The position numbers were made by a program, and so were the translations under genes. A DNA stretch of 64,000 bases, taken from PVC group bacterium (GTDB lineage Bacteria; Verrucomicrobiota; Kiritimatiellia; UBA8416). Each line of letters starts with the position of its first letter. Position 1 is the stretch's first letter. The stretch lies in NCBI GenBank assembly GCA_003567005.1, contig PXBF01000068.1, positions 12,392 to 76,391 of the forward strand, in the 5' to 3' direction. The notes under the pieces are model-generated. The model did no database searches and was not told where the DNA came from. It saw only the letters and a program-made list of their open reading frames with translations. Positions 28,620-56,201 of the stretch are shown here, in pieces.

Positions 28620-28639
28620 TCCTGCAGAAAGGAGCATAT

Positions 28640-30692: not shown

Positions 30693-30706
30693 AAACCGTT
30701 CCTTGC

Positions 30707-30760: not shown

Positions 30761-30806
30761 TTCACATTTCTACCTTTTCCAGCTCCAGTATGGTAATTAT
30801 ACGTTT

Positions 30807-31718: not shown

Positions 31719-31750
31719 AGATACCATGACCATATCGTGGAGAGGAAAGC

Positions 31751-33127
31751 ATGATGTTACAGCGTCACTATAAACCTGCAATAGAATGGATCAACCAATA
31801 CCAACGCGACCTCCAGCAATCCCATACGAATCAGGCGCAGATTACAATCGGACTTTGCCGCGATCATAAACCGGTAGCGCGTACGACAGTACCGATCTTT
31901 CCCGCAGATCAACAACTGCATCGCACCTGCAAATACGTGGAAAGACACTTGAAATCGTTACTATGGATGCATGGAGGAAACCGTATTTTGCTCGATGCGC
32001 CTGCTCCCCTCCAGCAATGGTTGCAAAACTATTATACAAAATCCCCAACGGGCATGTTTGATTCTACCGTAATGGGAGAAAAAATTTGTGGAAGCCCCAT
32101 AACGATAGAACCTATGGCAGGGCAATCCATTCCTTCCCCGGATGCAGGTGCCCAATCCGTGGGAAGAAATCTTGATGGCTGTCGTATCGGATTCGACCTT
32201 GGAGGCAGTGACCGCAAATGTGCTGCCCTTATAGATGGTGAGGTGGTTTTTTCCGAAGAAATCCCTTGGGATCCATACTTTCAGAAAGATCCGCAATATC
32301 ATTTTGAAGGAATTATGGACGCACTCAAGCGTGCAGCAAAACACCTGCCTCGGGTGGATGCGATCGGAGGGAGTGCCGCAGGTGTATATGTCGACAATGA
32401 AGTACGCGTAGCCTCGCTCTTTCGCGGCGTGGAACCAGCGGAATTCGAAAAATCAGTGCGAAATATCTTTCAACGCGTGCAAGCCGCCTGGGACAATGTC
32501 CCCTTTGTCGTGATCAACGATGGAGAAGTAACCGCTTTGGCTGGGGCCATGTCGCTACAAGCCTCTGCGCTATTGGGCATATCTATGGGAACCAGTACTG
32601 CTGCTGGCTACGTCACGCCGGAAGGACACCTCACAGACTGGCTCAATGAATTGGCATTTGTCCCCGTCGATTATAGCGATCAGGCTCCCATAGACGAATG
32701 GTCCGGAGATATCGGATGTGCCGTGCAATATTTCTCCCAGCAAGGCGTTGCGCGCCTCGCGCGCGAAGCAGGTATGCCCTTTCCTGCTGAGATGCCACTT
32801 CCCGAACAATTGATCGAGGTCCAAAACCGTATGGCAACTGGAGACTCCGTTGCAGAATCCATCTACACAGCCATCGGTGAGGCCTTCGGACACACCCTCG
32901 CGCATTGGTCTCATTTCTACGAATTAGAACACATATTGATACTGGGACGCGTAACCAGTGGTCCAGGTGGCGAACAAATCCTATCCCAAGCCCGGCAGTG
33001 CCTCAATACCCACTACCCGGATATCTCGCGGGAAATCCAACTGCACATTCCCGATGAGAAAATGAAGCGTCACGGACAAGCCATCGCCGCCGCAAGCCTC
33101 CCCTCCCTCGCCAGCAGCCGTTACTGA
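31751..33127 (+). CDS. ROK/BadF-type sugar kinase-like protein with a roughly 140-aa N-terminal extension
   Basis: ASKHA motifs GFDLGGSDRKCAAL (phosphate 1), VVINDGEVTALAG, LGISMGTSTAAGYV. 458 aa is long for a ROK protein. Confidence 0.5.
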   Translation: MMLQRHYKPAIEWINQYQRDLQQSHTNQAQITIGLCRDHKPVARTTVPIFPADQQLHRTCKYVERHLKSLLWMHGGNRILLDAPAPLQQWLQNYYTKSPTGMFDSTVMGEKICGSPITIEPMAGQSIPSPDAGAQSVGRNLDGCRIGFDLGGSDRKCAALIDGEVVFSEEIPWDPYFQKDPQYHFEGIMDALKRAAKHLPRVDAIGGSAAGVYVDNEVRVASLFRGVEPAEFEKSVRNIFQRVQAAWDNVPFVVINDGEVTALAGAMSLQASALLGISMGTSTAAGYVTPEGHLTDWLNELAFVPVDYSDQAPIDEWSGDIGCAVQYFSQQGVARLAREAGMPFPAEMPLPEQLIEVQNRMATGDSVAESIYTAIGEAFGHTLAHWSHFYELEHILILGRVTSGPGGEQILSQARQCLNTHYPDISREIQLHIPDEKMKRHGQAIAAASLPSLASSRY

Positions 33128-33185
33128 CGCAAGGCGTTTGTCGACACATAAGGGCCACGTCCGCGCATCGCGTCGCTCAACGCAT

Positions 33186-33228
33186 GGGGCCAGCATCGAA
33201 AATACTGGCCCCACTTGTATTTCTCCCT
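33186..33228 (+). terminator. Putative intrinsic terminator between convergent genes
   Basis: 8-bp perfect stem GGGGCCAG...CTGGCCCC (11-nt loop) followed by a T-rich ACTTGTATTTCTCCCTTTA. Confidence 0.4.
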
Positions 33229-33272
33229 TTATCGAACAGGATTTCCTCCGATGAAGATATCAGCACATTCTC

Positions 33273-35363
33273 TTAGAAACGAACCGTAGCGCCCAGTTCA
33301 AAACTGCGCTCCGGTCCAACATAGATCCCTTGACGCAATCCTGAAATATACTGTTCATCGGTGATATTCTTGATGGCACCAAATACATCAATTGATTCAC
33401 TGACGGCAAACTGACTTGTGAAATCAAACGTATGATAACTTGGAACCAACCCACCCCAAGTGCCTTGCTCCTCCGAGGTGAAATCTCGTACATTCATGCC
33501 ATCCCCATACGTCTCGCCAACATAGTTTAAAAGGATACTCGTTTGCAAACGCCCATAGGTATAGCCAACAGTAAGGTTCCCTGCCAGTTCTGGTGAGTAT
33601 GGCAAACGGTTTCCCTTCTCTGCCTCTCCTTCCCGATCTTCGCCAAATTCCGCAGTGGGGATCCAGGTTAGGTTTCCGTTAAGGCTGAATCCGCTTTCGA
33701 ACGCATATCCAACTGTGCCTTCTAGCCCTTGAATCAGTGCGCTGCCTTCATTCGGGTTCCGAATACCCGAAACCCCCGGATCGACCTGATTGGAAAAGTC
33801 CATTTGAAAAGCGGTCACCTCGTAATGCAAACGTTCATCGCCGCCTCTTACCCCAAACTCCACATTAATAGACGTTTCAGCGTCCGTTGGGGGTTGCTCA
33901 GCCCCTACTACGCTACCGACCAACGGCGGAGCAAAAGCACGATACACGCTACCAAATATTTGGGAAGCGGGGATGACTTGATAAGTCGCTCCAATGCCAG
34001 GCATGAATTCCGTGTTCCTGAAACGATCGTGGTCATCACCCACCTGGCGGTTTTCGCGCTTCTGCTCATAAGACTCCATACGAAGCCCGGTAGTTACCGC
34101 AAACCGTTCCGTAATGCCGGATCGATTCTGGACAAAAAGCGCGAGGCTCTCAGCCGAGTCTAATCGGTCACGCAGCAAGGGTTGATTTGGGGTGCGTGGC
34201 GAAGACCGATCAGCGCGAATCGTCTGGTCCAACATTTCCTCACGCATGAGACGAACCCCCCATTCGGATTCGTTATCCCAATCAAAAGCCGCATGTTGCA
34301 CCGTTAAACGCGAATCGATACCAAACCTTTCAAATGAACGATTGTTACCCTGCACTTCATCGCTATAATTCCATACGCGAAACCCATTAGCATTAACGCT
34401 CGTGGGTTGATCCGAGACAAGACGATATCGCCAATAATCACGGTTCATGTCGCTCCAGTACCCCACTGTCAACAAGGATACTTCAGGGGTAATCTGCCAG
34501 TCATGGCTCATATCAAATGCCTTGCGCTCGGTCAGGAACCAATCATCGGGTGCAGGGTTAAACTGTTCGCCTGCACGGTATGCATCGGGAAATAACCCAC
34601 GATACGAAATATTGGCGTCGGTCTCATAATACAAAAACTTCAGTGTCAGAAAATGGTTATCACCAATCGCACTCGTTGTCTTGAGCATGAGATCTGTCAT
34701 CTCATACTCTCGATCCATAAAGCCATCGCTCCGCGCATGGGTCGCAATAACCCCATAACGCGAGCCCAGTGATTCTGCGCCACCCCCGATTTCTATGGTT
34801 GCTTCTCGCGTGTTCCAGGAACCATAGCGTCCTCGAATCATCACACCATCATCCGGCGTTTTGGTCTGATAGTTAATGACCCCACCAACCGTGTTGGGTC
34901 CGTAGCGCAAAGATGCTGCACCCTTTAATACCTCAACTCCGGCCATCCGTTGCACACGCGGATTGTAATAACGTGAATTACCGACAAAAATGCCCGGCTG
35001 CACAGGAACACCATCTTCCAGTACCAGCGTCTTGTAATCGCCAGCAGGAAGTCCGCGGACCCCCACATTCACCACCACCGCGTTCTCGTCCTCCCCTTTG
35101 ATATAGATGCCCGGAATCCGGCGTAACACATCTTCTGTTGAACGCGGTTGCAGCTGATTGATCTCCACCTCCCCCACAACCGAGATCGATCCCGGCTGCA
35201 GGCCAGCATCATCCTGGCGCCCAAGTACCGTAACTGGGGCAAGCACTTGTATCCTTCCACTATCTGCTCGAACTGATTCCCCAATAAAAAACACGCCCAC
35301 CAGTAAAGCACCCACCTTAACGATTGACCAAAATCTCATCATCATTACCCCCATATTTTGCAC
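33273..35363 (-). CDS. TonB-dependent outer-membrane receptor
   Basis: Signal peptide. Plug domain with NQLQPRSTEDVLRRIPGIYI. A 22-strand barrel-sized protein (696 aa). C-terminal ...ATVRF with terminal Phe. Confidence 0.85.
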   Translation of the reverse strand: MQNMGVMMMRFWSIVKVGALLVGVFFIGESVRADSGRIQVLAPVTVLGRQDDAGLQPGSISVVGEVEINQLQPRSTEDVLRRIPGIYIKGEDENAVVVNVGVRGLPAGDYKTLVLEDGVPVQPGIFVGNSRYYNPRVQRMAGVEVLKGAASLRYGPNTVGGVINYQTKTPDDGVMIRGRYGSWNTREATIEIGGGAESLGSRYGVIATHARSDGFMDREYEMTDLMLKTTSAIGDNHFLTLKFLYYETDANISYRGLFPDAYRAGEQFNPAPDDWFLTERKAFDMSHDWQITPEVSLLTVGYWSDMNRDYWRYRLVSDQPTSVNANGFRVWNYSDEVQGNNRSFERFGIDSRLTVQHAAFDWDNESEWGVRLMREEMLDQTIRADRSSPRTPNQPLLRDRLDSAESLALFVQNRSGITERFAVTTGLRMESYEQKRENRQVGDDHDRFRNTEFMPGIGATYQVIPASQIFGSVYRAFAPPLVGSVVGAEQPPTDAETSINVEFGVRGGDERLHYEVTAFQMDFSNQVDPGVSGIRNPNEGSALIQGLEGTVGYAFESGFSLNGNLTWIPTAEFGEDREGEAEKGNRLPYSPELAGNLTVGYTYGRLQTSILLNYVGETYGDGMNVRDFTSEEQGTWGGLVPSYHTFDFTSQFAVSESIDVFGAIKNITDEQYISGLRQGIYVGPERSFELGATVRF

Positions 35364-35532
35364 ACACGCAATACAACAAGCTAAACTTCATGAAAGAAAA
35401 CATAGCAACAACGCCGCATAGTTTTATAACTTAAACTAGATTAGTCAAGACTAACAATATAAACGAATAAATGAAACATGAAGGATTTCCACAATGAGTC
35501 GCTTGCTGGCACGCGATTCGTTTCTAGCGGAT

Positions 35533-36747
35533 TTACACTTCTTCAGCAAGTGCCGCTTCCGCCAGAACCATGTCGTGGCGGCGTAGCCACGTATAGACAG
35601 CGCTAAACGCTAATAGCAAGACATTCAACCAGATTGCACCTGCATATCCGCCTGTCCAATCATATATCCACCCACCAAATGCAGGCCCTAGTAATGCAGA
35701 AATGCCATACAAAAGAAATAAGATTGGATACACGCAATTTACCCCCTCCAGCCCATAAACGCGGGAAACCTCAGCGGCATATACAACAAAGCAACCGCCA
35801 AAGGAAAACCCGACAAGCGCGGTAAAGATCAAATAAGCGACGGCATTTCCCCGCAACAAAAACATGGCAGGGATCATTAAGGCTGTCAGCAACAAGTTGG
35901 CCGGAATAGCGCGATAGCCAATTTGATCAAAGACCCACCCCCAGGTCAGTCTACCGGTAGCGTTACCAAAAGCAAAAAAACTGATTGAGAGAATAGCGGT
36001 AGATTCGAGAACGCCATGTGCTAAGCCTAGCGGTTTCAGGTTTCCCACCACCAACAAACCGGCGAACGTACCGGAAAAGATTCCCATTCCCAACAACCAG
36101 AACCGCCTATCGCGTAACAGCTTTGCAAGTGTGGGTTGCGGAACCGGAACGCTACGGCCCTCCGGTGGCCGAAACAGGCACAATGCACACAAACACACAA
36201 TGCCACCATAGCCAAAAGATATCATAGTAAATATCTCCAATAGCCCTGTACCTCTTTCGAGCAATATAACTGCCAGCTGGGAAAGCAAAATGGCCCCCCC
36301 ACCGAATCCCGTCACAGCGACACCCGTCACAAGTCCACGATGTGCCGGAAACCATAACATGCCCGACTTAAGCGCCGCAACGTAACCAAACCCAATAGCG
36401 GCCCCGCTCATAATGCCAATTCCAGCAAAAAGCCCCCAAAAGTGACCTTGGCTCAATACAGCAACCCCATATCCACTGCCGTACAAGACCCCGGCAATCA
36501 GTCCATTGACGCGTGCTCCAATGCGCAACTGCAACCGTCCTGCCGCAATCATGGCTACCGTAAAGCTGGCTATGGTTAACCCAAATACGATTTGTGTCTG
36601 CATGCGCGTGAGTCCAAAATCACGCTGTAAAATCGGCACAAACACACTCCAGCCGTAAAGTCCCCCCATACAAGTCTGCATCAAGAATACAGCCAACAGC
36701 ATAATCCAACGCTTTACGCCTGTCGTTACGGGAGGGCATCTCTTCAT
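35533..36747 (-). CDS. MFS transporter (oxalate/formate antiporter-like)
   Basis: 12 TM helices. N-terminal GGLYGWSVFVPIL characteristic of OFA-type MFS. 404 aa. Confidence 0.75.
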   Translation of the reverse strand: MKRCPPVTTGVKRWIMLLAVFLMQTCMGGLYGWSVFVPILQRDFGLTRMQTQIVFGLTIASFTVAMIAAGRLQLRIGARVNGLIAGVLYGSGYGVAVLSQGHFWGLFAGIGIMSGAAIGFGYVAALKSGMLWFPAHRGLVTGVAVTGFGGGAILLSQLAVILLERGTGLLEIFTMISFGYGGIVCLCALCLFRPPEGRSVPVPQPTLAKLLRDRRFWLLGMGIFSGTFAGLLVVGNLKPLGLAHGVLESTAILSISFFAFGNATGRLTWGWVFDQIGYRAIPANLLLTALMIPAMFLLRGNAVAYLIFTALVGFSFGGCFVVYAAEVSRVYGLEGVNCVYPILFLLYGISALLGPAFGGWIYDWTGGYAGAIWLNVLLLAFSAVYTWLRRHDMVLAEAALAEEV

Positions 36748-36768
36748 CGCATAGCTCCTGCCAAAATG

Positions 36769-37941
36769 TTACGTATGCACACGACAAAATGCTTCCATGC
36801 GGTCCAAACCCTTCTCGATAGTTGCCATATCCGTGGCATAACTGATTCGAATGTTCGCGTCGGCACCAAATGCAACGCCTGGTACGACCGCAACTTTCTG
36901 CTCTTCCAACAACAATTCACAGAATTGCACAGAGTCGAGCCCCGTCCCGGAAATATTCGGAAATAAGTAAAAGGCACCTTCCGGTTTACAACACATCACA
37001 CCCGGCATAGCCTGCAGACGTTCTAATGCATAGTCACGTCTCTTTTGAAAGGCAGCACACCATTCCTGCATATGATCCTGTGGACCATCCAATGCAGCGA
37101 CGCCTCCTTTTTGCGCGAAACTACAAGGATTGCTCGTGCTGTGACTCTGTAATGTCGTCATGGCCTTGGCAATAGGCAAAGGCGCAGCACAGAACCCCAG
37201 ACGCCAACCCGTCATACTCCATGCTTTTGCAAACCCATTCGCAATAATCGTGATGGCTTGATACTCACTGCCGAACGATGCCGGACTCCGGTGCCGAGCT
37301 CGCCCGTAAATTAAATGCTCATAGATTTCATCACTCAATATGTAGACACCATGTTCCAAGCAAATATCGGCAAGATCCTGCAACTCTTTGGGGCTGTAAA
37401 CCGCTCCCGTCGGATTGCTCGGAGAGTTGAGAATCACAATCTTGGTCGCAGCAGTAATAGCTTGACGAAGTTGTCTCGGCGTCATCTTGAAACCGGTAGA
37501 TTCATCCATAGGTACAATGATGGGCTTCGCATTCGCCAATTTTACCATTTCAGTATAGCTCACCCAGTACGGCGCGGGGATAATGACCTCATCACCTTGC
37601 TGGCAGAGCACTTGCATTGCATTGAAGCAGGTATGTTTTCCACCGCAGGATACCACAATTTGCTCGGGAGCATACGAAACCCCATTGTCCCGCTCGAACT
37701 TGCCTGTGATAGCTCTTCGAAGCTCTGGAATACCTGCTACCGGTGTATACTTCGTAAAGCCTTGGGCCAAAGCCTGAGATGCTGCCTGCTTGATGTGCGC
37801 AGGTGTATCAAAATCCGGCTCACCGGCGCCAAAGCCCACAACATCAATCCCACTCTGGCGCATTTCCTTGGCCTTGGCGTCAATGGCCAAGGTCATCGAA
37901 GGATTCATCCGCCCCACTCGATCCGCAAGTTTGTATTCCAT
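36769..37941 (-). CDS. Pyridoxal-phosphate-dependent aminotransferase, class I (aspartate aminotransferase-like)
   Basis: PLP-lysine region NGFAKAWSMTGWRLGF (SKxxxMTGWRxG motif). 390 aa. 21-nt gap to the downstream MFS gene on the same strand. Confidence 0.85.
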   Translation of the reverse strand: MEYKLADRVGRMNPSMTLAIDAKAKEMRQSGIDVVGFGAGEPDFDTPAHIKQAASQALAQGFTKYTPVAGIPELRRAITGKFERDNGVSYAPEQIVVSCGGKHTCFNAMQVLCQQGDEVIIPAPYWVSYTEMVKLANAKPIIVPMDESTGFKMTPRQLRQAITAATKIVILNSPSNPTGAVYSPKELQDLADICLEHGVYILSDEIYEHLIYGRARHRSPASFGSEYQAITIIANGFAKAWSMTGWRLGFCAAPLPIAKAMTTLQSHSTSNPCSFAQKGGVAALDGPQDHMQEWCAAFQKRRDYALERLQAMPGVMCCKPEGAFYLFPNISGTGLDSVQFCELLLEEQKVAVVPGVAFGADANIRISYATDMATIEKGLDRMEAFCRVHT

Positions 37942-38133
37942 TTCTTATCGACCCTGTCAATTTTCACATAGGATATGTTTGATCTTTACCCAATGCTCCA
38001 CATGGATACCACGCACTACCATCAGGAAAAATTTGCCCCAGCGGCATTACACTTCTCAGACTAGCTTGTCAAGACGTCTTCTATATTATGAGCTTGAATG
38101 TTGTAACCGCGAATCGCTACTCTACCCCCTATT

Positions 38134-38778
38134 ATGAAGATCAAATCAATACCAGTAGGTGCCTTTGAAGTAAATTGTTGGATCTTGGTGAATCAGCGCC
38201 GGGAAGCCATTATTGTTGACCCAGGTGCGGATGCTCCCCTCATAGAAGCTTGGTTGCAAAAAATGCGTCTGCATGTGCAAGGCTATTTGCTCACGCATGG
38301 ACACATGGACCATGTATCGGCGCTAGCCACATTAGTTGCAAAACACCCGGCCCCAATCCGCATACATCCAGCCGACGCAAATTGGGCCTTCTCATCATCC
38401 AATCAGATGCCCCCCTACTACCCCGCCCCTACCCCACCACCCGAAGAACTGCTGCAAGCTGACCTCGTTGAGTCGACCGGAAACGAGATGGCTGGCTCGC
38501 TTTTCAATGTGCTGGAAACCCCCGGCCATTCGCCCGGTTCTGTCTGCCTCCACTTTATCAATGAAAACACCCTGTTTACCGGCGACACAATACTCGCTGG
38601 TTCTGCAGGACGCACCGACTTTCCTGGCGGAAGTGCCAGCGATATGAAGCAATCACTGAAACGCCTATTGTCCCTACCCCCGAAAACAGTCATTTGCAGT
38701 GGTCACGGTCCAGCATCAACACTGGAAGATGAAATACAGACAAATCCTTTTCTACAAGAGTTCCAAACAGCGAAATAA
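38134..38778 (+). CDS. MBL-fold metallo-hydrolase, YcbL/glyoxalase-II-like
   Basis: THGHMDHV (HxHxDH), PGHSPGS and GDTIL motifs. The overall arrangement resembles E. coli YcbL. 214 aa. Confidence 0.8.
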   Translation: MKIKSIPVGAFEVNCWILVNQRREAIIVDPGADAPLIEAWLQKMRLHVQGYLLTHGHMDHVSALATLVAKHPAPIRIHPADANWAFSSSNQMPPYYPAPTPPPEELLQADLVESTGNEMAGSLFNVLETPGHSPGSVCLHFINENTLFTGDTILAGSAGRTDFPGGSASDMKQSLKRLLSLPPKTVICSGHGPASTLEDEIQTNPFLQEFQTAK

Positions 38779-38784
38779 TATACC

Positions 38785-39222
38785 ATGCTTACCGTTCATG
38801 CCGCAGGGATAGATACCGATAAGGTTGCACAGCAAATCAAAGCGCAGGCAGCCAAACGACATACGTCTGCCAAACTTACGATGGAACGCTTATCGAATAG
38901 CAAAATACAGTCTCCGGATGGATTTGCCAACAATACAGCTTTCATCGAGGCGTTGCTCGCTACCCTCCACGATACTGCATTTGTTGATATTAGCGACTTT
39001 GAGATCGTGGAACGACGGCAACGCTGGAGCTTGCCCCTTATTGCGCTAAAAAAATGCATCTGGAGTATGCTCCGTTTCTACACCTATCGCCTCTGGTCCC
39101 AACAAAATGAAATTAATGGATTTCTGTTGGCGGCCTTGCAAGGCATCCATGAAGACAGCAGCGAACGGATCAATGCGCTGGAAGAGAGAATCACAGAATT
39201 GGAATCGAAGCGCGACCAATGA
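38785..39222 (+). CDS. Hypothetical protein with a coiled-coil C-terminus
   Basis: 145 aa. No recognised motif. C-terminal heptad-like RINALEERITELESKRDQ. Its stop overlaps the next ORF by 4 nt. Confidence 0.4.
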   Translation: MLTVHAAGIDTDKVAQQIKAQAAKRHTSAKLTMERLSNSKIQSPDGFANNTAFIEALLATLHDTAFVDISDFEIVERRQRWSLPLIALKKCIWSMLRFYTYRLWSQQNEINGFLLAALQGIHEDSSERINALEERITELESKRDQ

Positions 39223-40121
39223 CGAATGTGTATGGAGCGCTGACATGTGTAGACCCTAAGCTATTGATGTACGAAACGTTGCGAACCCTACCCAAATGCA
39301 ATAAGATCATACACATGAAGGCAAAACAGAAAACGAAATGGCGACTCGATCGCGCACGCTTGGTCTTTGCAAGCATCTTGATCATCCTATCACTATGTGC
39401 GAATCTCGGCATTGCACGCGAAACGGGTGATCACAACCTCCCGCCCCTCTCTTACCGAACATGGACTAGCGAAGCTGGACAAACACTCGAAGCCGCTTTC
39501 ATCCATCTGCATCAGAACCAAGTTGTTCTCAAAGATCGCGAAGAGCAGCGTATCGCGATTCCAATTAATCGTTTGAGCTGGCGCGATCAAATCATGGCCC
39601 GTAGATTATCCGGATTACGCGGCACGGAGCCATTGTCCAGCGGAAGACGTGCAGTAACCCAAAGGCGACGCGCAGCCGATGCAAAAGTCATCGCTGCCTT
39701 CGGATCCGATTGCGAACCACTCCTGATCGATGCGATACAAGATGCGCGGCGCGAAATCCTGGTCGCCATTTACACGATGACGAGTCTGCCCATAGCCGAA
39801 GCCCTGCGCGAGGCCGCACAACGCGGTGTCGATATTCACATAAAATATGACAAAGGCCAAATCGAGGTGGGACGCATGTCTGAAATCATCGAAAGCCTTG
39901 AACCGGAACGCAACATCACCATAACCCCTATAGAAATGAGCGGACGTTTTGCATCGATGCATCACAAATTCGCGGTCATGGATCAGGCGGTCGTATTCAC
40001 AGGGTCATTCAACTTTACCGTGACAGCGGCAACGCAAAGCTATGAAAATGCCGTCGTTATCTATTCCGACAGCATTGCACAACGCTATACGCAGGAATTC
40101 GAATCCATTGAAAGTCGCTAA
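39219..40121 (+). CDS. Secreted or membrane-anchored SHD1-domain protein with a C-terminal PLD-family (HKD) Nuc-like nuclease/phosphodiesterase domain; alternative start 39315
   Basis: Signal/TM LVFASILIILSLCANLGIA. SLA1-homology SHD1 motif RTWTSEAGQTLEAAFIHLHQNQVVLKDREEQRIAIPINRLSWRDQ. Single HKD motif MHHKFAVMD...GSFNFT. Confidence 0.7.
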   Translation: MTNVYGALTCVDPKLLMYETLRTLPKCNKIIHMKAKQKTKWRLDRARLVFASILIILSLCANLGIARETGDHNLPPLSYRTWTSEAGQTLEAAFIHLHQNQVVLKDREEQRIAIPINRLSWRDQIMARRLSGLRGTEPLSSGRRAVTQRRRAADAKVIAAFGSDCEPLLIDAIQDARREILVAIYTMTSLPIAEALREAAQRGVDIHIKYDKGQIEVGRMSEIIESLEPERNITITPIEMSGRFASMHHKFAVMDQAVVFTGSFNFTVTAATQSYENAVVIYSDSIAQRYTQEFESIESR

Positions 40122-40942
40122 AGCATACGCATACTGCCTTTATGAAAGGCCGTATCCACCGTAATAACCATTGCGCCTTGACGAGTCTGCATATCACCCG
40201 TTATCAACTCAAGACCTTCCAGCAGAGCAGCTTCCCGTTCTGCAGGTATCAGCGACAATATGGTTTGGCTGTGCTGTTTACGCTGCTGCATAAAGCCAAT
40301 ATATTCGGCAAAAACGGGTACATTCGAAATATAATGCCCCATACCAAGCCCTTCGAGCACCGTAGCCCCTTCGATCCCCTGCTCCAGAAAGTATTGCAGC
40401 ACATCATAAAGCAAATCTTCATCGTATAAAATAACGAGTAGAACGCGCATACGTTGCACTTGCGCAGATGCCGCAGCGGTTGGATCGCATTGTTGCACCA
40501 TCGCTTCATGTAATGCTTCGGGGGTTTTGGCCGAAAGCAAGGTTCTCCTGCGGCGCGCCGACCCCGTAATGCGCGAAATGCCGGCAAGTGCCTTCAAGTG
40601 GCCGCTGGGCTCTTCTGCAGGGCCAAGTACAACAAATAACAGACGGCATTTACGGCGGTCTAATGATTCAAAATCTACCCCTTTGGGGGCAACGGCCACA
40701 CCCACAACAAACTGTTTCAAGCCGGGCACCCGGGCATGCGGCAACGCCACGCTACGACCCAGCCCCGTGCTGCCTTTGGCTTCACGTGCAGCCAGCAACT
40801 GATACACACGCTCAGCCCCAATTTCGGCAACAGCGGGATGCTTGGCCATGAGTTCGGCGAGCTTGCGTAACACCGCGTCTTTGTTTCTGGCATGAAAATC
40901 AACACGGCAGCAGTTTGCATGTAACGCATCGAGTAAAATCAT
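40118..40942 (-). CDS. Fusion of a PTS EIIA type-2 (EIIA-Ntr-like) domain and a C-terminal PII-like (GlnB-fold/DUF190-like) domain
   Basis: Phospho-His motif GRSVALPHARVPG (His69) in the N-terminal domain. C-terminal roughly 115 aa fit a beta-alpha-beta-beta-alpha-beta pattern (RVLLVILYDEDLLYDVLQYFLEQGIEGATVLEGLGMGH...). 4-nt overlap with the upstream antiporter gene. Confidence 0.65.
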   Translation of the reverse strand: MILLDALHANCCRVDFHARNKDAVLRKLAELMAKHPAVAEIGAERVYQLLAAREAKGSTGLGRSVALPHARVPGLKQFVVGVAVAPKGVDFESLDRRKCRLLFVVLGPAEEPSGHLKALAGISRITGSARRRRTLLSAKTPEALHEAMVQQCDPTAAASAQVQRMRVLLVILYDEDLLYDVLQYFLEQGIEGATVLEGLGMGHYISNVPVFAEYIGFMQQRKQHSQTILSLIPAEREAALLEGLELITGDMQTRQGAMVITVDTAFHKGSMRML

Positions 40943-42201
40943 TCGTCTTCCTCCATCTCATTCCCGCGAATAATGGCTCCTTTCGCCAAAGGCGGCCCTA
41001 GAAGCTGATTGATAAACACCGACAACAGCACAACATTGACCAATGTCTCCACTACTTGTGCTTGCACGTCAGTCATATTCGCCGCCAGCGGTGATGCCTG
41101 GATCAGCAATACCAGTCCCAATGCAACACCCGCTTGCGGGAACATGCAAAGCCCTAAATTCAGCCGAATCGGTACCGCACATTGCGTAAATCTCCCTCCG
41201 AGGTAAGTCGTCCCCCACTTTGCCAGATTTCGACTGCATATAAACACAAACCCCAGCAACAAAACAGTCGGGCGCATCAGAATGGAAAGTTGCAACTCAC
41301 TACCCGCCAACACAAAAAATAATGCATAAAGCGGCGGTGTGAGCGGCTCGAGCAGTCGGAAAATACGGTGATGACGGGCCGAGACATTTGTCAGAACCGC
41401 TCCTGCGGTCATATTCATCAAAAGCGGAGAAAGATGAAATACGATCGCGATGGCTGTTGCCATACAAACAATCCCAAGCACGATCAGCAAAATCTCATTC
41501 GGATGGTTCTTGCGGGCAATTGACATATGCAAAATACTGCCCATAACCAGACCTGCTGCAAGGGATAGTACAACTTCACCCAGCGCACTCCAGAAAAGGC
41601 TACTCGCAGATTCTTCTCCCCCAGCCCAACCCAGCATCCCAGCGGCCAACGAAAAACAAATGCCAAACAAAATAACAGCGCCTGCATCCAGTAACGCAAC
41701 CGTGCCGTACAAACAATCTACGAAAAAGCCTTTTGCACGAAGCGATTGCACCATGGCAACAACCACGGCTGGAGAAGAGGTTGTGGCTATGGCCGCAAGT
41801 ATCATGGCGAAAGGCAAGGCCAGACCAGCCAGAACCATAGCACCCAGAACAATCACAAAGGTACCGACCAACTGAAACAATGAGATCCACAATACGGGGG
41901 ATCCCATGCGTTTGAGCTTCGATAGAGAAAACTCACTGCCAATCGTCAAGGCAATCAGTCCAAGCGCAATCTCCGTAATCATTTTCATCGAGCCAGCAAC
42001 CTGCAAAGGAACAATTCCCAGCATGCTGTCGCCCAGCATGACGCCCGCCAAAATGAACCCCGTTATTTCCGGCAATTTCACATAACGAGCCAAGATACCA
42101 ATGCAATAGCCCATGAGCAACATCGCCCCCACTGTGAACAATACATGTTCACTCAGTAGTGCTCGCAACGTGATCAGCGGTTCAATGAGAATATGCAACA
42201 T
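40939..42201 (-). CDS. Cation:proton antiporter, CPA2/Kef-type membrane domain without a fused RCK domain
   Basis: 420 aa, about 12 TM. N-terminal LPEITGFILAGVMLGDSMLG typical of Na+/H+ exchanger-family proteins. Confidence 0.8.
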   Translation of the reverse strand: MLHILIEPLITLRALLSEHVLFTVGAMLLMGYCIGILARYVKLPEITGFILAGVMLGDSMLGIVPLQVAGSMKMITEIALGLIALTIGSEFSLSKLKRMGSPVLWISLFQLVGTFVIVLGAMVLAGLALPFAMILAAIATTSSPAVVVAMVQSLRAKGFFVDCLYGTVALLDAGAVILFGICFSLAAGMLGWAGGEESASSLFWSALGEVVLSLAAGLVMGSILHMSIARKNHPNEILLIVLGIVCMATAIAIVFHLSPLLMNMTAGAVLTNVSARHHRIFRLLEPLTPPLYALFFVLAGSELQLSILMRPTVLLLGFVFICSRNLAKWGTTYLGGRFTQCAVPIRLNLGLCMFPQAGVALGLVLLIQASPLAANMTDVQAQVVETLVNVVLLSVFINQLLGPPLAKGAIIRGNEMEEDE

Positions 42202-42211
42202 AAGCTATCTT

Positions 42212-43261
42212 TCAGGCATATTGATCCAACGCCCAGGCAGCATGCTCGCGAAGAATAGCGTCAGATCCATTTCGCAATTGTTCCAACGCAGCAATGCTGG
42301 CTGTATCCTGCAAATTTCCAGCTACGATGCAAGCATTTCTCTGCATCCGCCAGAGGCCTGTCCGCATGAGTGGCGTCCCGGAAAATCGTTTAGCAAAAGC
42401 GTTTTCATCCATCTTCAGAATTTTAGATGGCCAAATGCCGGGGCCAGCACGCCAAGCAAGAAAATCATCCTCTTTTGTCAACTGTTTACGCAATTGAAAC
42501 GGACAGACATCTTGACACAAATCGCAACCAAAAAGCCAAGTTCCCATGGGCTTACGTAACGCCAGAGGAATCGGCCCCTTATGCTCAATCGTAAGATACG
42601 AAATGCACAAACGCGCATCGATTTCCCCCGAACGGATCAAAGCGCCCGTTGGACATATATCCAGACATTTACGACATCCGGATGGACAGGCCCCATGCTT
42701 CGCTTCAACAAGAGGGGTGGCCGCCCAATGCCGCGTCGACAATACTTCTCCAATGACAAACCAGCTACCCAATGCGCTATGAATCAGCAGGGTATTTCGA
42801 CCGATAAAACCGCCCCCGCCCGCACATGCATAATAGCGCTCATCTAAAGGCAACGCATCCGTATAGCCCTTGAAAGCTTCCGCAGGATAGTTCTCGCGCA
42901 ACATACGCGCCGCTTTGCGCAATCGATTGCCAAGCACTTTGTGGTAATCGCGCCCCCAGGCATAACGTGCGATGCGCCCCTGCCCCGACTCACAACTGCC
43001 TGGTTGATAATAAGAAAGGCCAGAAATCAGTACAGAGCGACACCCCGGCAACATATGGCTCGGATCGTATTTGCCTTCCGCATGGCGTTCCAACCACTTC
43101 ATATCGCCATGCCGACCTGCCCGCAGCCAGGACTGGTAACGAGCCGTTGCCGCCGCATCCGGCCCCGCATCCGCCACGCCCAATAACTGCAAACCGACAT
43201 CTTGAAAGATTGCCGCCACATCCGCGGGAACAGCAGGAAAATAGGAGGACTGGGGCATCAT
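42212..43261 (-). CDS. queG: tRNA epoxyqueuosine(34) reductase
   Basis: Two 4Fe-4S ferredoxin motifs CPSGCRKCLDICP and CDLCQDVCP. C-terminal HEAT-like tail LEQLRNGSDAILREHAAWAL. 349 aa. Confidence 0.6.
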   Translation of the reverse strand: MMPQSSYFPAVPADVAAIFQDVGLQLLGVADAGPDAAATARYQSWLRAGRHGDMKWLERHAEGKYDPSHMLPGCRSVLISGLSYYQPGSCESGQGRIARYAWGRDYHKVLGNRLRKAARMLRENYPAEAFKGYTDALPLDERYYACAGGGGFIGRNTLLIHSALGSWFVIGEVLSTRHWAATPLVEAKHGACPSGCRKCLDICPTGALIRSGEIDARLCISYLTIEHKGPIPLALRKPMGTWLFGCDLCQDVCPFQLRKQLTKEDDFLAWRAGPGIWPSKILKMDENAFAKRFSGTPLMRTGLWRMQRNACIVAGNLQDTASIAALEQLRNGSDAILREHAAWALDQYA

Positions 43262-43303
43262 GGATAAGCCTCCCCATTCTCGTTCCGAGCACGCAAAAGG
43301 AGT

Positions 43304-44584
43304 CTAGTCGTTATTTGGATCATCCATTTCATCCTTTCGATGATAAACCGAACGAGCACGCCGCTGCGATGCATCATTCCATTGTAAAAGAAGCCACAAC
43401 CCCGCAGCACCGACCAAGACAATACCGGTAATAATCCAGAAAACGATTGATAAGGAAATGCCCGTAACCAAAAAAAACCAGCCGAGAACGGGTCCCAGGA
43501 TACCTCGCACGCCCATGAACCAGAAATGCAATCCAAGATAATGCGGCGTTCTATGCGCAGGCGCCAAACGCAAAACAGACAATAAACTGGCAATTTCCAA
43601 CCCTGCGATCATAAAGCGAAAGATGGCTTCTGCAGAGGCAACGACAATCACGGGATTGACTGTATGCATGGCTAGCGCCAACGCAGCGGGACGAATGGCC
43701 TTGAACGTCATGCATATCGCGAGAACAAACAGCGGATTGCCTGTTCGACGTGCGACCTTACTCCACAAAAAATATCCCCCTATGGAAGCAAGCGGACCCG
43801 CAATCCCCAATGCTGCCGCCACATCGCTATAACGCAAATTCAAAACATCCGTGAAATACACGGGCAAAACCGGCATGCCGATCTTCTCGGCAAACGTACC
43901 AATAAAAAACACCAGCAAAAAGATGCCAAATCGTCGATCTTCTAGCAAAACACGGAACTCTTCGCCAAATGCTAATGGCCGCGAACGTTGGGACGCACTC
44001 TCAATTTGACGGCGTGGAAGCGCAAAAAGAAAGCCCACAGTCGCCAATGCCAAAAGCCCTGCAAGCGGGAAAACAATACGATAGCTCCACACATTGACAT
44101 CAAAAAGATTACCCGCCAACCATGTAAGCGGAACCGACGTCAGAACCGTAGTCACACGAATCCATTTCATCGTATCGCCCTGTAGGCCCGGGCGCACATG
44201 ACCCCGCAATAAGTTACCCGTTAAGCTGATGGATGACGAGACGATTGCAACCACAACGGTTGCCAAAATCGTAAACGCTATCGGTCCTGTCGTTACGGCA
44301 AATCCCAGAAGGAGAAAGCAAGAGATCACGCGGGAAATACCGAGCAATCGACTCCAACCAATGTTTCCCGCCAAGCGTGCGATCCGCATCGAACCGAGAA
44401 ACCCCAGAAAGGGAGCCATTGCCAAAAGAGCCATGGCACTATCACCGGCTCCCAGCCTGCGCGCTACCACACCGTAAAAGGGAATGCCGATTCCATGTAT
44501 GAAAGCGAGCCCAACGGCATCCCACAAGGCTGCCCGCACAAAAGGCTGGCTCATTCTGGGGATTCGTCCGTATCGCTTCATCAA
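43304..44584 (-). CDS. MFS transporter
   Basis: 426 aa, 12 predicted TM helices. MFS-like loop 2-3 GVVARRLG. Confidence 0.7.
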   Translation of the reverse strand: MMKRYGRIPRMSQPFVRAALWDAVGLAFIHGIGIPFYGVVARRLGAGDSAMALLAMAPFLGFLGSMRIARLAGNIGWSRLLGISRVISCFLLLGFAVTTGPIAFTILATVVVAIVSSSISLTGNLLRGHVRPGLQGDTMKWIRVTTVLTSVPLTWLAGNLFDVNVWSYRIVFPLAGLLALATVGFLFALPRRQIESASQRSRPLAFGEEFRVLLEDRRFGIFLLVFFIGTFAEKIGMPVLPVYFTDVLNLRYSDVAAALGIAGPLASIGGYFLWSKVARRTGNPLFVLAICMTFKAIRPAALALAMHTVNPVIVVASAEAIFRFMIAGLEIASLLSVLRLAPAHRTPHYLGLHFWFMGVRGILGPVLGWFFLVTGISLSIVFWIITGIVLVGAAGLWLLLQWNDASQRRARSVYHRKDEMDDPNND

Positions 44585-44632
44585 ACCAACGTACCCCTAC
44601 AGAAAAGCAAAGACAACGCAAAGGGAATCCCG

Positions 44633-44980
44633 TTAATCCGCCTTTCGGGACAAATGAATCGATAACACCTGCTCATCATAACATACTTCAGATAAATCAC
44701 TCATAAGCGCAACCAGATACAGCTCGTTACTGTTCTCTACCTCGCCAGCCAGTTGCCAGTAATAATCCTCTAATTCAGGATTGCGTTCCGCTGATAACTT
44801 ATCACGCAGCTCCTTGATCTCTTGTTCGCTCACGTCGACATTTTCAAAACGAAAAAGCAGCTCATATCCCGATTTGCACTTTTCTGTCGTAAAATACGTT
44901 TTGGTCGGCTCGTACTTGTACATGCAAACCGTCATCACTTCATCCGCAATTTTCAAAACTTTCTTCAATTCATGTTTCAT
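44633..44980 (-). CDS. Small hypothetical protein, compositionally AT-richer than its neighbours
   Basis: 115-aa acidic ORF whose start overlaps the DUF1538 gene stop by 4 nt. Visibly lower GC than flanking genes. Confidence 0.4.
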   Translation of the reverse strand: MKHELKKVLKIADEVMTVCMYKYEPTKTYFTTEKCKSGYELLFRFENVDVSEQEIKELRDKLSAERNPELEDYYWQLAGEVENSNELYLVALMSDLSEVCYDEQVLSIHLSRKAD

Positions 44981-46278
44981 GATCTATCCTCCTTTTTGAG
45001 GGAATTGATGATCGGCACGAGAAAAGACGCAACAAAGCCCCCCGCAAACCCATTATTGTACAAATTTACCCCGCCATGCAATACGCCAACATTCATCACA
45101 ATCGACAAATGACAAAATCCTGCAACGATTCCCGCAAAAACTCCGAATTGACCAGCAATTGGTGCTAATGTAGTACCAAAAAGTCCAGCAATGATGACCG
45201 GCGTACTCCCTCCATCCCACATTTTTAACATAGACGCAAGATACACCCCTAGTAAAATAGGCACGCAATTTTTAACATGTTTACCAAATGCCGCGAATCC
45301 CACAACGGTTAAAATACCACCAATCACCGGCCCATTGAAACGGCCTCCAAGCGCAATCACAAAAAAAGATGCAATGAGCCCCATGAACCCCATATTGAAA
45401 ACGCTCGAAGGCACATCACCAATCCGCATAAAATCACTGATCAACCGACCCGACGATGCATGAATGAGACGCATTTTTTCTGCTATCACGCGATTCCCAC
45501 ATCGATCTAATACATATCCCGCAAACATAAGAAACACAAAAAAAACAAGTAAAAGGACTTTCAGGAAAAAGTCATAGCGATCTTCTAACAGCGATGTTGG
45601 CGCTACGGTAAAGTCAAAACTACGTAGCCAAGCCGTAAGAAAAGACCCCACGATGCCCCCCGTAAATCCGATATTGTAAATATTGTAACCATCGTGAAAA
45701 CGCAGCATGTGCGATGCGAGTGGCGGCAACACGAATCCGGCCAATACCCCCAAAAGGGCTCCAGTAACAGCGGCAACGCCGCCCGAAAGGTGCGAGCCGA
45801 AGGTAATCGCACTTACAAGCGGAGCCAAGGTTGTACCAAACAAAGCAACCAGTGCATAGTTACGCGTCGGAACCCTTTGCACCTTGGCAAACAGAGCAAC
45901 GCCAATAAATATCGGCCATACATTGAAAATATTTTTACCAAAGAAAGCAAACCCGATCACTGTATACACAGCAGCAACAAAGGGGCCATTCAACTCTACT
46001 CGCAACAACGCCAGTAATACGCAGCAGATGATTCCGCATAGCCCCGCATTCACCAGTGTGGCACCTACCCCCCCAATATGTAGGTAATCATGCAACAGCA
46101 CACTGGGTGATGTGATGATATTTCGCATGCCCGCTATAATGGCGCTTGGTGTCTCACTGAATAGCCCAACGATCAATAACAATACAGGAAATACGTAAAT
46201 CCCGTATTGTAATACCTTATCGTACCGCATTTCGTCTGGCTCATCTTTTACCATTATGCCCCCTATCCATGTATACAT
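44977..46278 (-). CDS. DUF1538-family membrane protein (internally duplicated)
   Basis: Two homologous halves: VGATLVNAGLCGIICC...YTVIGFAFFGKNIFNVWPIFIGVALFAK versus MGFMGLIASFFVIALGG...LTVVGFAAFGKHVKNCVPILLGVYLASM. Confidence 0.6.
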   Translation of the reverse strand: MYTWIGGIMVKDEPDEMRYDKVLQYGIYVFPVLLLIVGLFSETPSAIIAGMRNIITSPSVLLHDYLHIGGVGATLVNAGLCGIICCVLLALLRVELNGPFVAAVYTVIGFAFFGKNIFNVWPIFIGVALFAKVQRVPTRNYALVALFGTTLAPLVSAITFGSHLSGGVAAVTGALLGVLAGFVLPPLASHMLRFHDGYNIYNIGFTGGIVGSFLTAWLRSFDFTVAPTSLLEDRYDFFLKVLLLVFFVFLMFAGYVLDRCGNRVIAEKMRLIHASSGRLISDFMRIGDVPSSVFNMGFMGLIASFFVIALGGRFNGPVIGGILTVVGFAAFGKHVKNCVPILLGVYLASMLKMWDGGSTPVIIAGLFGTTLAPIAGQFGVFAGIVAGFCHLSIVMNVGVLHGGVNLYNNGFAGGFVASFLVPIINSLKKEDRS

Positions 46279-47042
46279 GCTTCTATATCAAGATCATACT
46301 GCAACACAGGAAAGTTTCTCCTTAACTGCCGGACTTGGTGTACGTCTACGTCCACCAAAAGAAAAGCAGGATTTTGCTCATCCGCTTCGGCGCGGATTCC
46401 GCCATCCGGTCCACAAACCATCGATTTTCCCCCAAATGACAAGTTGCCCCGACTTCCGCAGTAATTCACGCCAACAACGTATGCCTGATTCTCCAATGCA
46501 CGCGCACGCAATAATAGCTGCCAATCATCAATCCGCTTCCACGGCCATGCAGAAACCACGACCAGCACTTCTGCGCCAGCTTTGGCATAAGACCGGTATA
46601 ATGCAGGAAATCGAAGGTCAAAACAAATAGATAACCCAAAGAGCACACCATCTACATCAATGAGACAAGGATCTCTTCCAGGCAAGAAATGAAGATCTTC
46701 GCGCGCATCCGAATTCGAGAAAATATGCAGCTTCTCATAAGGAACGATAAGGTCCCCCCGCGGAGAAAAGCTGTACAGTGCATTGGCGTCCCGTGTCCTA
46801 CCCGGCTTGCGCATGCCGGCAAATATCCAAAGTCCAGATTCCTGTGACTGCTTCGCTAAAAAACGCGGGGACTCCGCTGTCTGAGCAGACGCGATATCCA
46901 AGTCATATCCACTATCAGATAGCTCCGGAAAAAACACTGCATGGCAACCGGAAGCAACAGCAGTTGCAATATAGTCTTCGTAATGCGCCGTTGTGTTCGG
47001 TATCACGCTACAAGCAGATAATTGGACAACGCCGACGCGCAT
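46263..47042 (-). CDS. Carbon-nitrogen hydrolase (nitrilase superfamily)
   Basis: E-K-C triad context: FFPELS (Glu), YEKLHIF (Lys), LSICFDLRFP (Cys). 259 aa. Overlaps the DUF1538 gene by 16 nt. Confidence 0.8.
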   Translation of the reverse strand: MRVGVVQLSACSVIPNTTAHYEDYIATAVASGCHAVFFPELSDSGYDLDIASAQTAESPRFLAKQSQESGLWIFAGMRKPGRTRDANALYSFSPRGDLIVPYEKLHIFSNSDAREDLHFLPGRDPCLIDVDGVLFGLSICFDLRFPALYRSYAKAGAEVLVVVSAWPWKRIDDWQLLLRARALENQAYVVGVNYCGSRGNLSFGGKSMVCGPDGGIRAEADEQNPAFLLVDVDVHQVRQLRRNFPVLQYDLDIEACIHG

Positions 47043-47044
47043 AC

Positions 47045-47686
47045 CTATTCTCCCTCACCTGCATCATCCGGCAACACCGCGTCAAGGGCCGCCTGCTTCA
47101 CACCGTCATCAACTGCTTCGAATGCCATGCGATAGGTATGAATGCTATCCACATACTGCTGAACGTCTTTAGGCGACACCTTCTGCGACTTTTTACCTGT
47201 TCGATAAAGGGCATGTAGAATATCTGGCAAAGGAATCAAATCCTCAATTTGCCGCGCTGCACTCGTACGTCCATCATAGAGCCCAATGCGTTGCAAGACT
47301 TCCAGCATTTTCGAACAAAGTTGCGTAGTACAAGTCACCGGCCGACATTTCTGCAAACGGCAGCCCTGTCTGCCGAGCGCCGGGCAAGGACCATTGCCCG
47401 GCATGCGCCCCATCGGCAGTGGTTCCAATCTTGCATACCACTTTCGATCAAAATGCGCCTGAACCGGATTTAAGGTGTCCCAGTGATCGTGTACTTGGTT
47501 ATCAATCATACAACAGCACCAGGATTCCCGCGCATCACGCTTTCCGGCACCATGCTCTCGTAACGTTTTACGGGCGCATCGACCACAAAGAGGCCCAAAA
47601 CCATCAAACAATTTCCACAAGGCACGCTCAATTTTATGAAAATGCTGCAAATCGCGACTATGAATGTTTCCCATGACGCACCTCAA
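47045..47686 (-). CDS. YkgJ-family (PF03692-like) cysteine-cluster protein, putative Fe-S/Zn-binding
   Basis: CGRCARK...WCCC plus CPALGRQGCRLQKCRPVTC resembling the C-xFL-...-C-xIY-xxRP-xxC signature of YkgJ/FliB proteins. A 2-nt gap separates it from the C-N hydrolase. Confidence 0.45.
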   Translation of the reverse strand: MRCVMGNIHSRDLQHFHKIERALWKLFDGFGPLCGRCARKTLREHGAGKRDARESWCCCMIDNQVHDHWDTLNPVQAHFDRKWYARLEPLPMGRMPGNGPCPALGRQGCRLQKCRPVTCTTQLCSKMLEVLQRIGLYDGRTSAARQIEDLIPLPDILHALYRTGKKSQKVSPKDVQQYVDSIHTYRMAFEAVDDGVKQAALDAVLPDDAGEGE

Positions 47687-47694
47687 ACTGTTAC

Positions 47695-51691: not shown

Positions 51692-51695
51692 GCCC

Positions 51696-56198: not shown

Positions 56199-56201
56199 AC
56201 C

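Follow-up and report, generated by a model that had tools for sequence, protein, structure and literature searches.

Two adjacent genes on the minus strand of a 64,000-nucleotide stretch of DNA from a PVC group bacterium (GenBank assembly GCA_003567005.1, contig PXBF01000068.1, positions 12,392 to 76,391; this whole stretch is the window) encode a cation/proton antiporter and a soluble protein, here called the regulator, in which an EIIA domain of the phosphotransferase system (PTS) is fused to a PII-like domain. As the original prediction for this locus had stated, the two genes overlap by 4 nt; the shared letters are ATGA. The layout, in window coordinates and with the basis of each assignment, is as follows.

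40939..42201, minus strand: antiporter gene, 420 aa (open reading frame, ORF).
40118..40942, minus strand: regulator gene, 274 aa plus stop codon, encoding the EIIA(Ntr)-like and PII-like fusion (ORF, Pfam, relatives).
40939..40942, minus strand: ATGA overlap of the antiporter stop codon with the regulator start codon, read as translational coupling (sequence reading).
40950..40954, minus strand: GGAGG ribosome-binding site within the 3' end of the antiporter gene, 7 nt before the regulator ATG (sequence reading).

The antiporter matches the Pfam family Na_H_Exchanger (PF00999; E=2.7e-30, 105.9 bits against a gathering score of 26.2). Because this match spans residues 32-406 of 420, the protein was concluded to lack an RCK or other soluble domain, in agreement with its earlier description as a membrane domain only, and searches of both the antiporter and the regulator with Pfam and NCBIfam models returned no RCK, KTN or TrkA domain. 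The NCBIfam CPA2 model TIGR00932 gives the antiporter 44.7 bits, under its cut-off of 238.3, and a search of the PDB with the single sequence found no match; a profile of 25 antiporter family members was needed for PDB matches, and this profile is closest to the CPA2 protein NapA (5bz2, 1.2e-8), followed by the CPA1 protein MjNhaP1 (6.9e-7). No support was obtained for the earlier descriptions of Kef-like character and efflux: the C-terminal KTN/RCK domain of Kef/KEA-type exchangers is absent from the window antiporter, NapA is its nearest match and the CPA2 cut-off is missed. Judged from its sequence, the protein belongs to the CPA superfamily as a divergent NapA-like (CPA2-type) member and consists of the membrane domain only. 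Two features of its ion pathway could be placed by alignment.

41683..41697, minus strand: ion-site motif A169-L-L171-D172-A173 of transmembrane helix 5 (TM5), aligned with NapA D156-D157 (alignment to NapA).
41218..41220, minus strand: Lys328, invariant, aligned with the 'GK' of NapA TM10 (NapA alignment, column counts).

Both D172, which matches the essential aspartate of NapA, and K328, whose NapA counterpart we take to be K305, are kept in 79 of 79 relatives, and Arg324, four residues before Lys328, is likewise invariant. The position before D172 is variable, being Asp in 61 of the 79 relatives (D-D), Gly in 7, and Leu in the window antiporter and its ten nearest relatives, which come from Kiritimatiellae and soda-lake Spirochaetaceae. 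That this L-D variant is common to different phyla hints at lateral transfer, and the variant perhaps confers a different coupling stoichiometry.

The regulator begins with the EIIA domain, which is followed by a linker.

40502..40924, minus strand: PtsN-like PTS EIIA type-2 domain, residues 7-147 (Pfam PF00359; PDB 1a6j; predicted local distance difference test, pLDDT, about 90-96).
40736..40738, minus strand: His69, predicted phospho-acceptor in the motif ALPHAR (alignment with PtsN H73).
40451..40501, minus strand: variable, low-confidence linker, residues 148-164 (conservation; pLDDT about 57).

The N-terminal domain matches Pfam PTS_EIIA_2 (PF00359; E=5.5e-24, 85.2 bits against a cut-off of 27) over residues 7-147, and the motif SVALPHARV occupies residues 64-72. 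Among PDB structures it is closest to E. coli PtsN (1a6j, E=1.5e-14), with H69 aligned to H73, which bears out the proposal of a type-2 EIIA domain with a retained phosphorylatable histidine. None of the 78 relatives lacks H69 or R53, and H115 is retained in all but one (77 of 78); these three correspond to PtsN active-site residues. PtsN also ranks first among NCBIfam models, yet below the equivalog cut-off (TIGR01419, 79.3 versus 138.7 bits); a second PtsN model, NF008145, scores 56.1 bits against a cut-off of 221. Typical PtsN (EIIA-Ntr) proteins are free-standing, are about 150-160 aa long and are encoded in rpoN-hpf-ptsN-type clusters. The regulator does not occupy such a setting, being a 274-aa fusion encoded between the antiporter gene and a PLD-like gene. 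Its linker is the least conserved region of the family; at positions 151-164 the commonest residue has a mean frequency of 0.27 among 78 fused proteins.

The C-terminal domain was identified from several lines of evidence. No Pfam or NCBIfam model names it, and precomputed Pfam annotation labels all 28 full-length relatives of the regulator (273-278 aa, identity down to 37%) as EIIA only.

40121..40450, minus strand: divergent PII-family domain, residues 165-274, beta-alpha-beta-beta-alpha-beta (AlphaFold2, Foldseek, Pfam, hhalign).
40274..40345, minus strand: T-loop equivalent, residues 200-223, GMGHYISNVPVFAEYIGFMQQRKQ (conservation; low-confidence loop between beta2 and beta3).

Structure prediction was conducted on monomers. 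In the AlphaFold2 model of the full protein, a confident EIIA domain and a low-confidence linker are followed by a strand (165-172), a helix (175-187), a strand (193-199), a low-confidence loop (200-223), a strand (224-233), a helix (234-248) and a strand (257-263). The C-terminal domain modelled alone adopted the same topology (pLDDT 75, predicted TM-score 0.68; in its own numbering, strand 5-12, helix 15-27, strand 33-38, loop, strand 65-73, helix 74-88, strand 97-103). When this fold was compared with the PDB by Foldseek, 84 matches were obtained at E<=1e-3, the best 50 of which all belong to the PII superfamily (probability 1.00, TM-score 0.52-0.78); among the matches listed were PstA/DarA (including the homologue 3m05), GlnK/GlnK1, GlnB/GlnZ, PotN, SbtB, CPII, a DUF3240 protein and CutA1. 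A sequence profile of the domain retrieved only PII and GlnK chains from the PDB, weakly (E=0.4-1.2), and Pfam P-II (PF00543) matched 20 of 22 family members at sub-threshold or borderline scores, the best being 1.5e-5. When 1.84 billion representative proteins were searched exhaustively with a profile of the domain, 633 relatives came to light. Many of these are free-standing proteins of 105-120 aa (profile E 1e-21 to 1e-9), and several free-standing relatives (profile E=1e-18 to 1e-21) reach 30.6-33.4 bits with the P-II model, above its gathering score. Because the fold, the structural matches, the profile matches and the threshold-passing free-standing relatives agree, it was concluded that the C-terminal domain is a remote but real member of the PII family, the GlnB-like fold that had been proposed for it.

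Other families were considered for this domain. The original prediction had named DUF190 and DUF3240 beside PII as models for comparison, and of all Pfam families only DUF190 gave a further match in the regulator, a weak one over residues 176-199; across the family this 24-residue stretch was matched in 6 of 22 members (best E=0.012). DUF3224 was matched in 9 of 22 (best E=0.051), and DUF3240 appeared solely as Foldseek match number 28. P-II was preferred over all three because it matches 20 of 22 members and reaches 1.5e-5. Neither of the two checks by which the original prediction could have failed spoke against it: the predicted fold is ferredoxin-like and PII-like, and the domain searches pointed to P-II and to no unrelated family. 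Its interpretation is thus supported. A c-di-AMP (cyclic di-AMP) receptor of the DarA/PstA type was also rejected as an identity. These proteins are among the top structural matches but have no sequence support (the NCBIfam DarA model does not match the window domain, and a free-standing relative scores 15.1 versus 140 bits) and show opposite loop proportions; they were kept as a pointer to a possible ligand.

No segment of the regulator is as well conserved as the T-loop. Among the 78 fused proteins, 11 of its 24 positions are at least 95% conserved versus 17 of 150 in the EIIA domain, with the consensus GMGxYISNVPLFAEFIGFMxExKN, as would be expected of a docking surface. In an hhalign alignment LEGLGMGH (196-203), a segment previously singled out as T-loop-like, falls on GlnB TEVKGFGR, that is, on the end of beta2 and the base of the T-loop. 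GAT (192-194) aligns with GlnB G27-M28-T29 and GMG (200-202) with G35-F36-G37. In canonical PII proteins ATP or ADP and 2-oxoglutarate are bound through G37, R38, Q39, K58, G87-D88-G89-K90, R101 and R103, and the T-loop is modified at Y51 or S49. The B-loop of the window-type domain reads TGDxxxxQGA and has no K90, and Y51 of GlnB has no alignable counterpart; K268 and R272 in the C-terminal tail possibly stand in for R101 and R103.

The association of the two genes was examined by scanning one genome per species (185,579 species) with a profile of the PII domain. A relative was found in 125 genomes, and 80 loci were retrieved and analysed by ORF calling and hidden Markov models (HMMs), 78 of them informative for the upstream gene. 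EIIA is fused to the PII-like domain in every locus that is not cut by a contig end. Of the 78 informative loci, 76 have a gene for an antiporter of the same subfamily immediately before the fusion gene and in the same orientation; co-occurrence of this kind had been put forward as a check. The genes overlap by 1 nt in 35 loci and by 4 nt in 16, and in a further 18 they abut or stand up to 3 nt apart, so that an overlap of 4 or 1 nt is seen in 51 of 76 and a gap of -4 to +3 nt in 69 of 76. No third conserved partner gene was found among the 80 loci. In three sampled relatives, at 57%, 44% and 37% identity, a Na_H_Exchanger gene is directly upstream in otherwise unrelated neighbourhoods; the closest relative (92% identity in the PII domain) comes from a metagenome-assembled Kiritimatiellae genome. 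The 80 carriers comprise 51 Spirochaetota, 7 Cloacimonadota, 6 Kiritimatiellae, 5 Verrucomicrobiota, 2 'PVC group', 2 Lentisphaeria, 2 Desulfuromonas-type, 2 Chitinivibrionales, 1 Planctomycetaceae, 1 WOR-3 and 1 unclassified genome, many of them apparently, to judge by their isolate codes, from soda-lake or saline sediments. OZ245363.1, OY771587.1, OZ271854.1 and CAXXTU010000002.1 are among the carriers with complete genomes. Antiporter and fusion are a conserved, translationally coupled two-gene module.

Free-standing relatives of the PII-like domain reveal what this module looks like when it is divided into separate genes. A metagenome scan with an 8-sequence subset of these relatives as query confirmed 492 relatives, of which 80 loci were kept; the counts below refer to those 41 that have no less than 600 nt of upstream and 1,500 nt of downstream sequence.

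EIIA, PII-like, antiporter of the same subfamily: 12 of 41 loci.
PII-like, antiporter: 3 of 41 loci.
PII-like, EIIA, Mrp-type operon: 7 of 41 loci.
PII-like, Mrp-type operon: 4 of 41 loci.
EIIA, PII-like, ClC: 2 of 41 loci.
EIIA only beside PII-like: 8 of 41 loci.
PII-like without EIIA or the listed exchangers: 5 of 41 loci.

The PII-like protein is the common element; of the 41 loci, 29 have EIIA next to it and 28 have an ion exchanger. Individual examples show the different partners side by side. In one (P0177) the PII-like gene precedes a 412-aa antiporter of the window subfamily (311 bits to the family HMM), as it does in a second (P0164); in another (P0167) it directly follows a separate EIIA gene; and in a fourth (P0166) it lies 4 nt after a separate 158-aa EIIA gene and is followed by genes for a DUF2007-like small protein and a ClC-CBS channel. 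Occurrence with the antiporter minus EIIA, and with EIIA minus the antiporter, is as expected if the PII-like protein is the adaptor and EIIA its input. Because EIIA and the PII-like protein are fused in some genomes and separate in others, the gene arrangements argue that the two would interact physically.

Gene order differs between the versions, the PII-like gene preceding EIIA in the Mrp version and the order being EIIA, PII-like, antiporter in the CPA version. The Mrp assignment is based on Pfam matches to MnhE, MrpF, MnhB and MbhD; in these loci (among L097-L176, e.g. L135 3923..5923, L110, L120 and L150) the PII-like gene heads the operon in 11 of 41, 7 of them with EIIA. A DUF2007-like small protein, which we presume to belong to the same GlnB-like fold clan, is encoded after the EIIA/PII-like pair in about 6 loci (L088 164..3013; L093 3530..4706; L151 4360..4701), and in L088 and L089 a ClC-CBS channel gene follows it.

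The analysis establishes which domains are present, how they fold, that the histidine is conserved, that the genes are linked and that they occur both fused and split; upon this a model can be placed whose physical contact, direction of regulation, ion, nucleotide ligand and oligomeric state are inferred. We consider it probable, though only modestly so, that the module is a switch in which a PII-like regulator of the antiporter is controlled by phosphorylation of EIIA, so that ion and pH balance would be tied to metabolic state. The antiporter, having no cytoplasmic regulatory domain of its own, would receive its soluble regulator from the second gene. By likeness to GlnK-AmtB and SbtB-SbtA, the PII-like domain would dock on the cytoplasmic face of the antiporter via the near-invariant T-loop (GMGxYISNVPLFAEFIGFM) and gate transport. 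On the antiporter, candidate contact sites would be two conserved loops, near R155-D162 and N272-P290, and its C-terminal tail (AIIRGNxME), which is conserved too. The EIIA domain, on a flexible linker of about 15 residues, would supply the signal: His69 would be phosphorylated by the HPr or NPr protein of a PTS phosphorelay, phospho-His69 would alter the contact of EIIA with the PII domain or the antiporter, and transport would be switched on or off by phosphoenolpyruvate (PEP) and carbon/nitrogen status. PTS-Ntr genes have been reported in Spirochaetales and Planctomycetales (PMC13104625). In one Spirochaetales metagenome-assembled genome (L063 3166..9489) the antiporter and fusion genes are followed by genes for HPr (PF00381), an EIIA-Glc-type protein (PF00358), a 471-aa protein without a family and Enzyme I.

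Several observations weigh against this model. That locus is the only one of the 80 in which HPr and Enzyme I genes lie near the module, and the window contains no gene for Enzyme I, HPr or NPr in a search with E. coli and B. subtilis sequences, a result that is uninformative at 64 kb. The PII domain of the window protein itself scores 13.3 bits (E=0.11) against the P-II gathering score of 25, and the canonical ATP/2-oxoglutarate residues R38, Q39 and K90 have no alignable counterparts in it. Canonical PII proteins are trimers that match the trimeric AmtB and SbtA, whereas CPA antiporters such as NapA and YcgO are dimers, and because of this mismatch with the dimer expected here a simple three-fold plug does not fit the antiporter. 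The window antiporter has L-D at the ion site where most relatives carry D-D; its ion or coupling may therefore differ. Finally, the regulator may have other targets, because 8 of 41 split pairs have no transporter nearby and two Lentisphaeria genomes (L042 907..1734; L057 4501..5328) carry the fusion without any antiporter nearby. These two are the exceptions among the 78 informative loci; in them the fusion gene is flanked on one side by an S49 peptidase gene and on the other by a glycoside hydrolase gene, the hydrolases being of families 4 and 31.

An alternative that we consider rather unlikely retains the PII-like domain as regulator of the antiporter but leaves EIIA unphosphorylated, as a ligand-binding or docking domain only, the signal being a small molecule (an adenine nucleotide or c-di-AMP) bound in the PII-like clefts. 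The lack of PTS phosphorelay genes in the window would agree with this, as would the 7 of 41 split loci that pair the PII-like gene with an antiporter or Mrp and have no EIIA gene. The c-di-AMP receptors PstA/DarA, moreover, are among the best Foldseek matches, and c-di-AMP is well known to regulate K+ and CPA2 transporters. However, with identities down to about 37%, 77-78 of 78 relatives still have H69, R53 and H115, and their persistence across such divergent proteins is not easily explained if the phosphorylation site is idle. The c-di-AMP variant of this alternative is further opposed by the absence of an NCBIfam DarA match to the window domain and by the long T-loop of that domain (24 residues), unlike PstA/DarA, in which the T-loop is short and the B-loop long.

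It is improbable, in our estimation, that the antiporter instead has in the fusion protein an obligatory subunit with a structural or activating role, much as KefC has KefF and KefB has KefG, which would serve assembly or basal activity without a signal-dependent switch. Tight translational coupling, implying near-equal output of both proteins, the lack of a soluble domain in this antiporter subfamily and the almost universal pairing in the fused family would suit such a subunit; both domains of the regulator, however, come from dedicated signalling families, and its phospho-acceptor histidine is invariant. Because the same protein pair is also attached to the unrelated transporters Mrp and ClC, a portable regulator fits better than a structural subunit.

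There is similarly little to recommend the idea that the fusion is a general PtsN-type regulator with many targets, merely co-expressed with an antiporter that is not its direct target. E. coli PtsN does have several partners, namely TrkA, KdpD, PhoR and YcgO (PMC13104625), and both the two genomes with a fusion and no antiporter beside it and the 8 of 41 split pairs without an adjacent transporter are what a general regulator would leave behind. Yet adjacency is kept in 76 of 78 genomes while the surroundings change, the free-standing PII-like protein alone pairs with the same antiporter subfamily, and the regulator gene lies outside an rpoN-type operon, the usual site of ptsN. A chance neighbourhood of the antiporter and fusion genes is ruled out by the linkage in 76 of 78 loci, the tight gaps and the lack of any other kept neighbour.

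The closest working analogue of the proposed switch is the control of the CPA1 K+/H+ antiporter YcgO by PtsN in E. coli, where unphosphorylated PtsN binds the CorC domain of YcgO and inhibits it; His73 forms part of the interface, and binding is lost with the phosphomimic H73E (PMC11808508; bioRxiv 10.64898/2026.08.14.744764). The likeness would lie in the post-translational control of a CPA-superfamily antiporter by an EIIA(Ntr)-type protein via an accessory cytosolic domain rather than by direct action on the membrane helices, and the EIIA domain of the window protein is most similar to PtsN. The systems differ in that YcgO has its own RCK and CorC domains, whereas the window antiporter is NapA-like and has no soluble domain; the accessory domain is fused to the transporter in YcgO but to EIIA in the window protein, where it is PII-like; and the window EIIA is under the NCBIfam PtsN equivalog threshold (79.3 versus 138.7 bits). 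The window genes also form an operon, whereas E. coli ptsN is located in the rpoN operon, away from ycgO.

GlnK-AmtB and SbtB-SbtA resemble the PII-like side of the module in having a small beta-alpha-beta-beta-alpha-beta protein with a long T-loop encoded beside a transporter, and GlnK1 and SbtB are among the structural matches of the window domain. Their transporters are trimers, in contrast to the cation/proton antiporter of the window, for which a dimer is expected; the window T-loop is unrelated in sequence to those of GlnK and SbtB, and the canonical nucleotide and 2-oxoglutarate residues are only partly recognisable in the window domain. In addition, the window-type domain is fused or adjacent to EIIA, which we do not know to be the case for GlnK or SbtB. 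PotN and DarA/PstA are PII-like proteins tied to transport and osmotic homeostasis, with roles beyond nitrogen control, and they are among the best structural matches (3m05, 4wk1, 4d3h, 7o4x), but they show no significant sequence match with the window domain, differ from it in loop proportions and are linked neither to EIIA nor to antiporters.

Two further comparisons concern architecture. KefC with KefF, KhtTU and CpaA share with the window pair the reliance of a CPA2-type exchanger on a soluble regulatory module, fused or encoded in an adjacent gene; this likeness is in role only, as the window proteins have no RCK, KTN or TrkA domain and the EIIA and PII-like folds are unrelated to RCK. 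LacS-type transporters carry a fused EIIA-Glc-like domain that is phosphorylated by HPr (PMC10710835), and thus provide a case of a PTS EIIA domain as regulatory appendage of a non-PTS secondary transporter. That domain, a member of the EIIA-Glc family (EIIA_1), is part of the transporter polypeptide, in contrast to the type-2/Ntr EIIA of the window, which belongs to a separate soluble protein and is joined to a PII-like domain. The module is best filed as a new combination of PII-like transporter gating with PtsN-type control of cation/proton antiport, each kind being known separately.

The remaining features of the window surround the operon. Downstream and convergent, a gene on the plus strand (39219..40121) encodes a 300-aa PLD-like protein with an SHD1-like segment and overlaps the regulator stop codon by 4 nt. 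Upstream on the minus strand (42202..44584), 10 nt separate the end of an epoxyqueuosine reductase (QueG-like) gene from the antiporter start, and a major facilitator superfamily (MFS) transporter gene is found just upstream of the QueG-like gene. Because the QueG-like gene ends so close, the transcript in the window may be longer than two genes; the QueG-like and MFS neighbours are not conserved in other genomes, and scans for promoters and terminators around the operon gave a signal no better than shuffled sequence. Farther upstream (44633..46278, minus strand), a gene for a DUF1576 membrane protein (433 aa, Pfam E=6.2e-113) and a 115-aa ORF without a family overlap by 4 nt. The DUF1576 gene recurs in the close relative L006 and in one unrelated locus, L091, where it is just upstream of a free-standing PII-like gene and antiporter pair; with these three occurrences it was set aside as synteny or coincidence. 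Most of the ORFs examined at 35.5-46.3 kb lie on the minus strand, every 2-kb bin of the window (1..64000) has a negative GC skew, and no tRNA genes or Rfam matches were found across the 64 kb.

PII proteins and the regulatory PTS are among the most widespread bacterial sensors of metabolic state. They are known to control transport separately, PII proteins through GlnK-AmtB and SbtB-SbtA, and PtsN through TrkA, KdpD and YcgO. The fusion family unites them in one polypeptide or operon dedicated to cation/proton antiporters. The original prediction had called such wiring unusual. Being present in at least 125 species genomes, the arrangement is not rare, but it does seem to be undescribed: the full text searched contained neither a description of an EIIA-PII fusion nor one of PII-like proteins regulating CPA or Mrp antiporters, most subscription journals lying outside that scope, so that absence is no proof. 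The module is apparently widespread, unannotated and undescribed, and public databases name these proteins only 'PTS sugar transporter subunit IIA'. As a tentative proposal, on which we would place somewhat less than even confidence, EIIA(Ntr)-like and 'GMG' PII-like proteins, fused or adjacent, would constitute a widespread unrecognised portable module for unrelated monovalent ion/proton exchangers (NapA-like CPA, Mrp (CPA3) and occasionally ClC), joining PTS-Ntr and PII in one switch that sets Na+/K+/H+ homeostasis by PEP/energy status in anaerobic sediment and soda-lake bacteria.

If the proposed control is true, the module would offer a testable answer to how antiporters without RCK domains are regulated post-translationally. 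PII-like control would then reach the CPA family and, probably, Mrp; the literature searched yielded no such soluble regulators for them. The PtsN-antiporter logic recently solved by structure in E. coli would exemplify a wider principle, arrived at more than once in evolution by way of different adaptor domains, and the gene pair would provide a small two-protein study system from organisms of alkaline, saline and anoxic habitats, for which Na+/H+ balance is critical.

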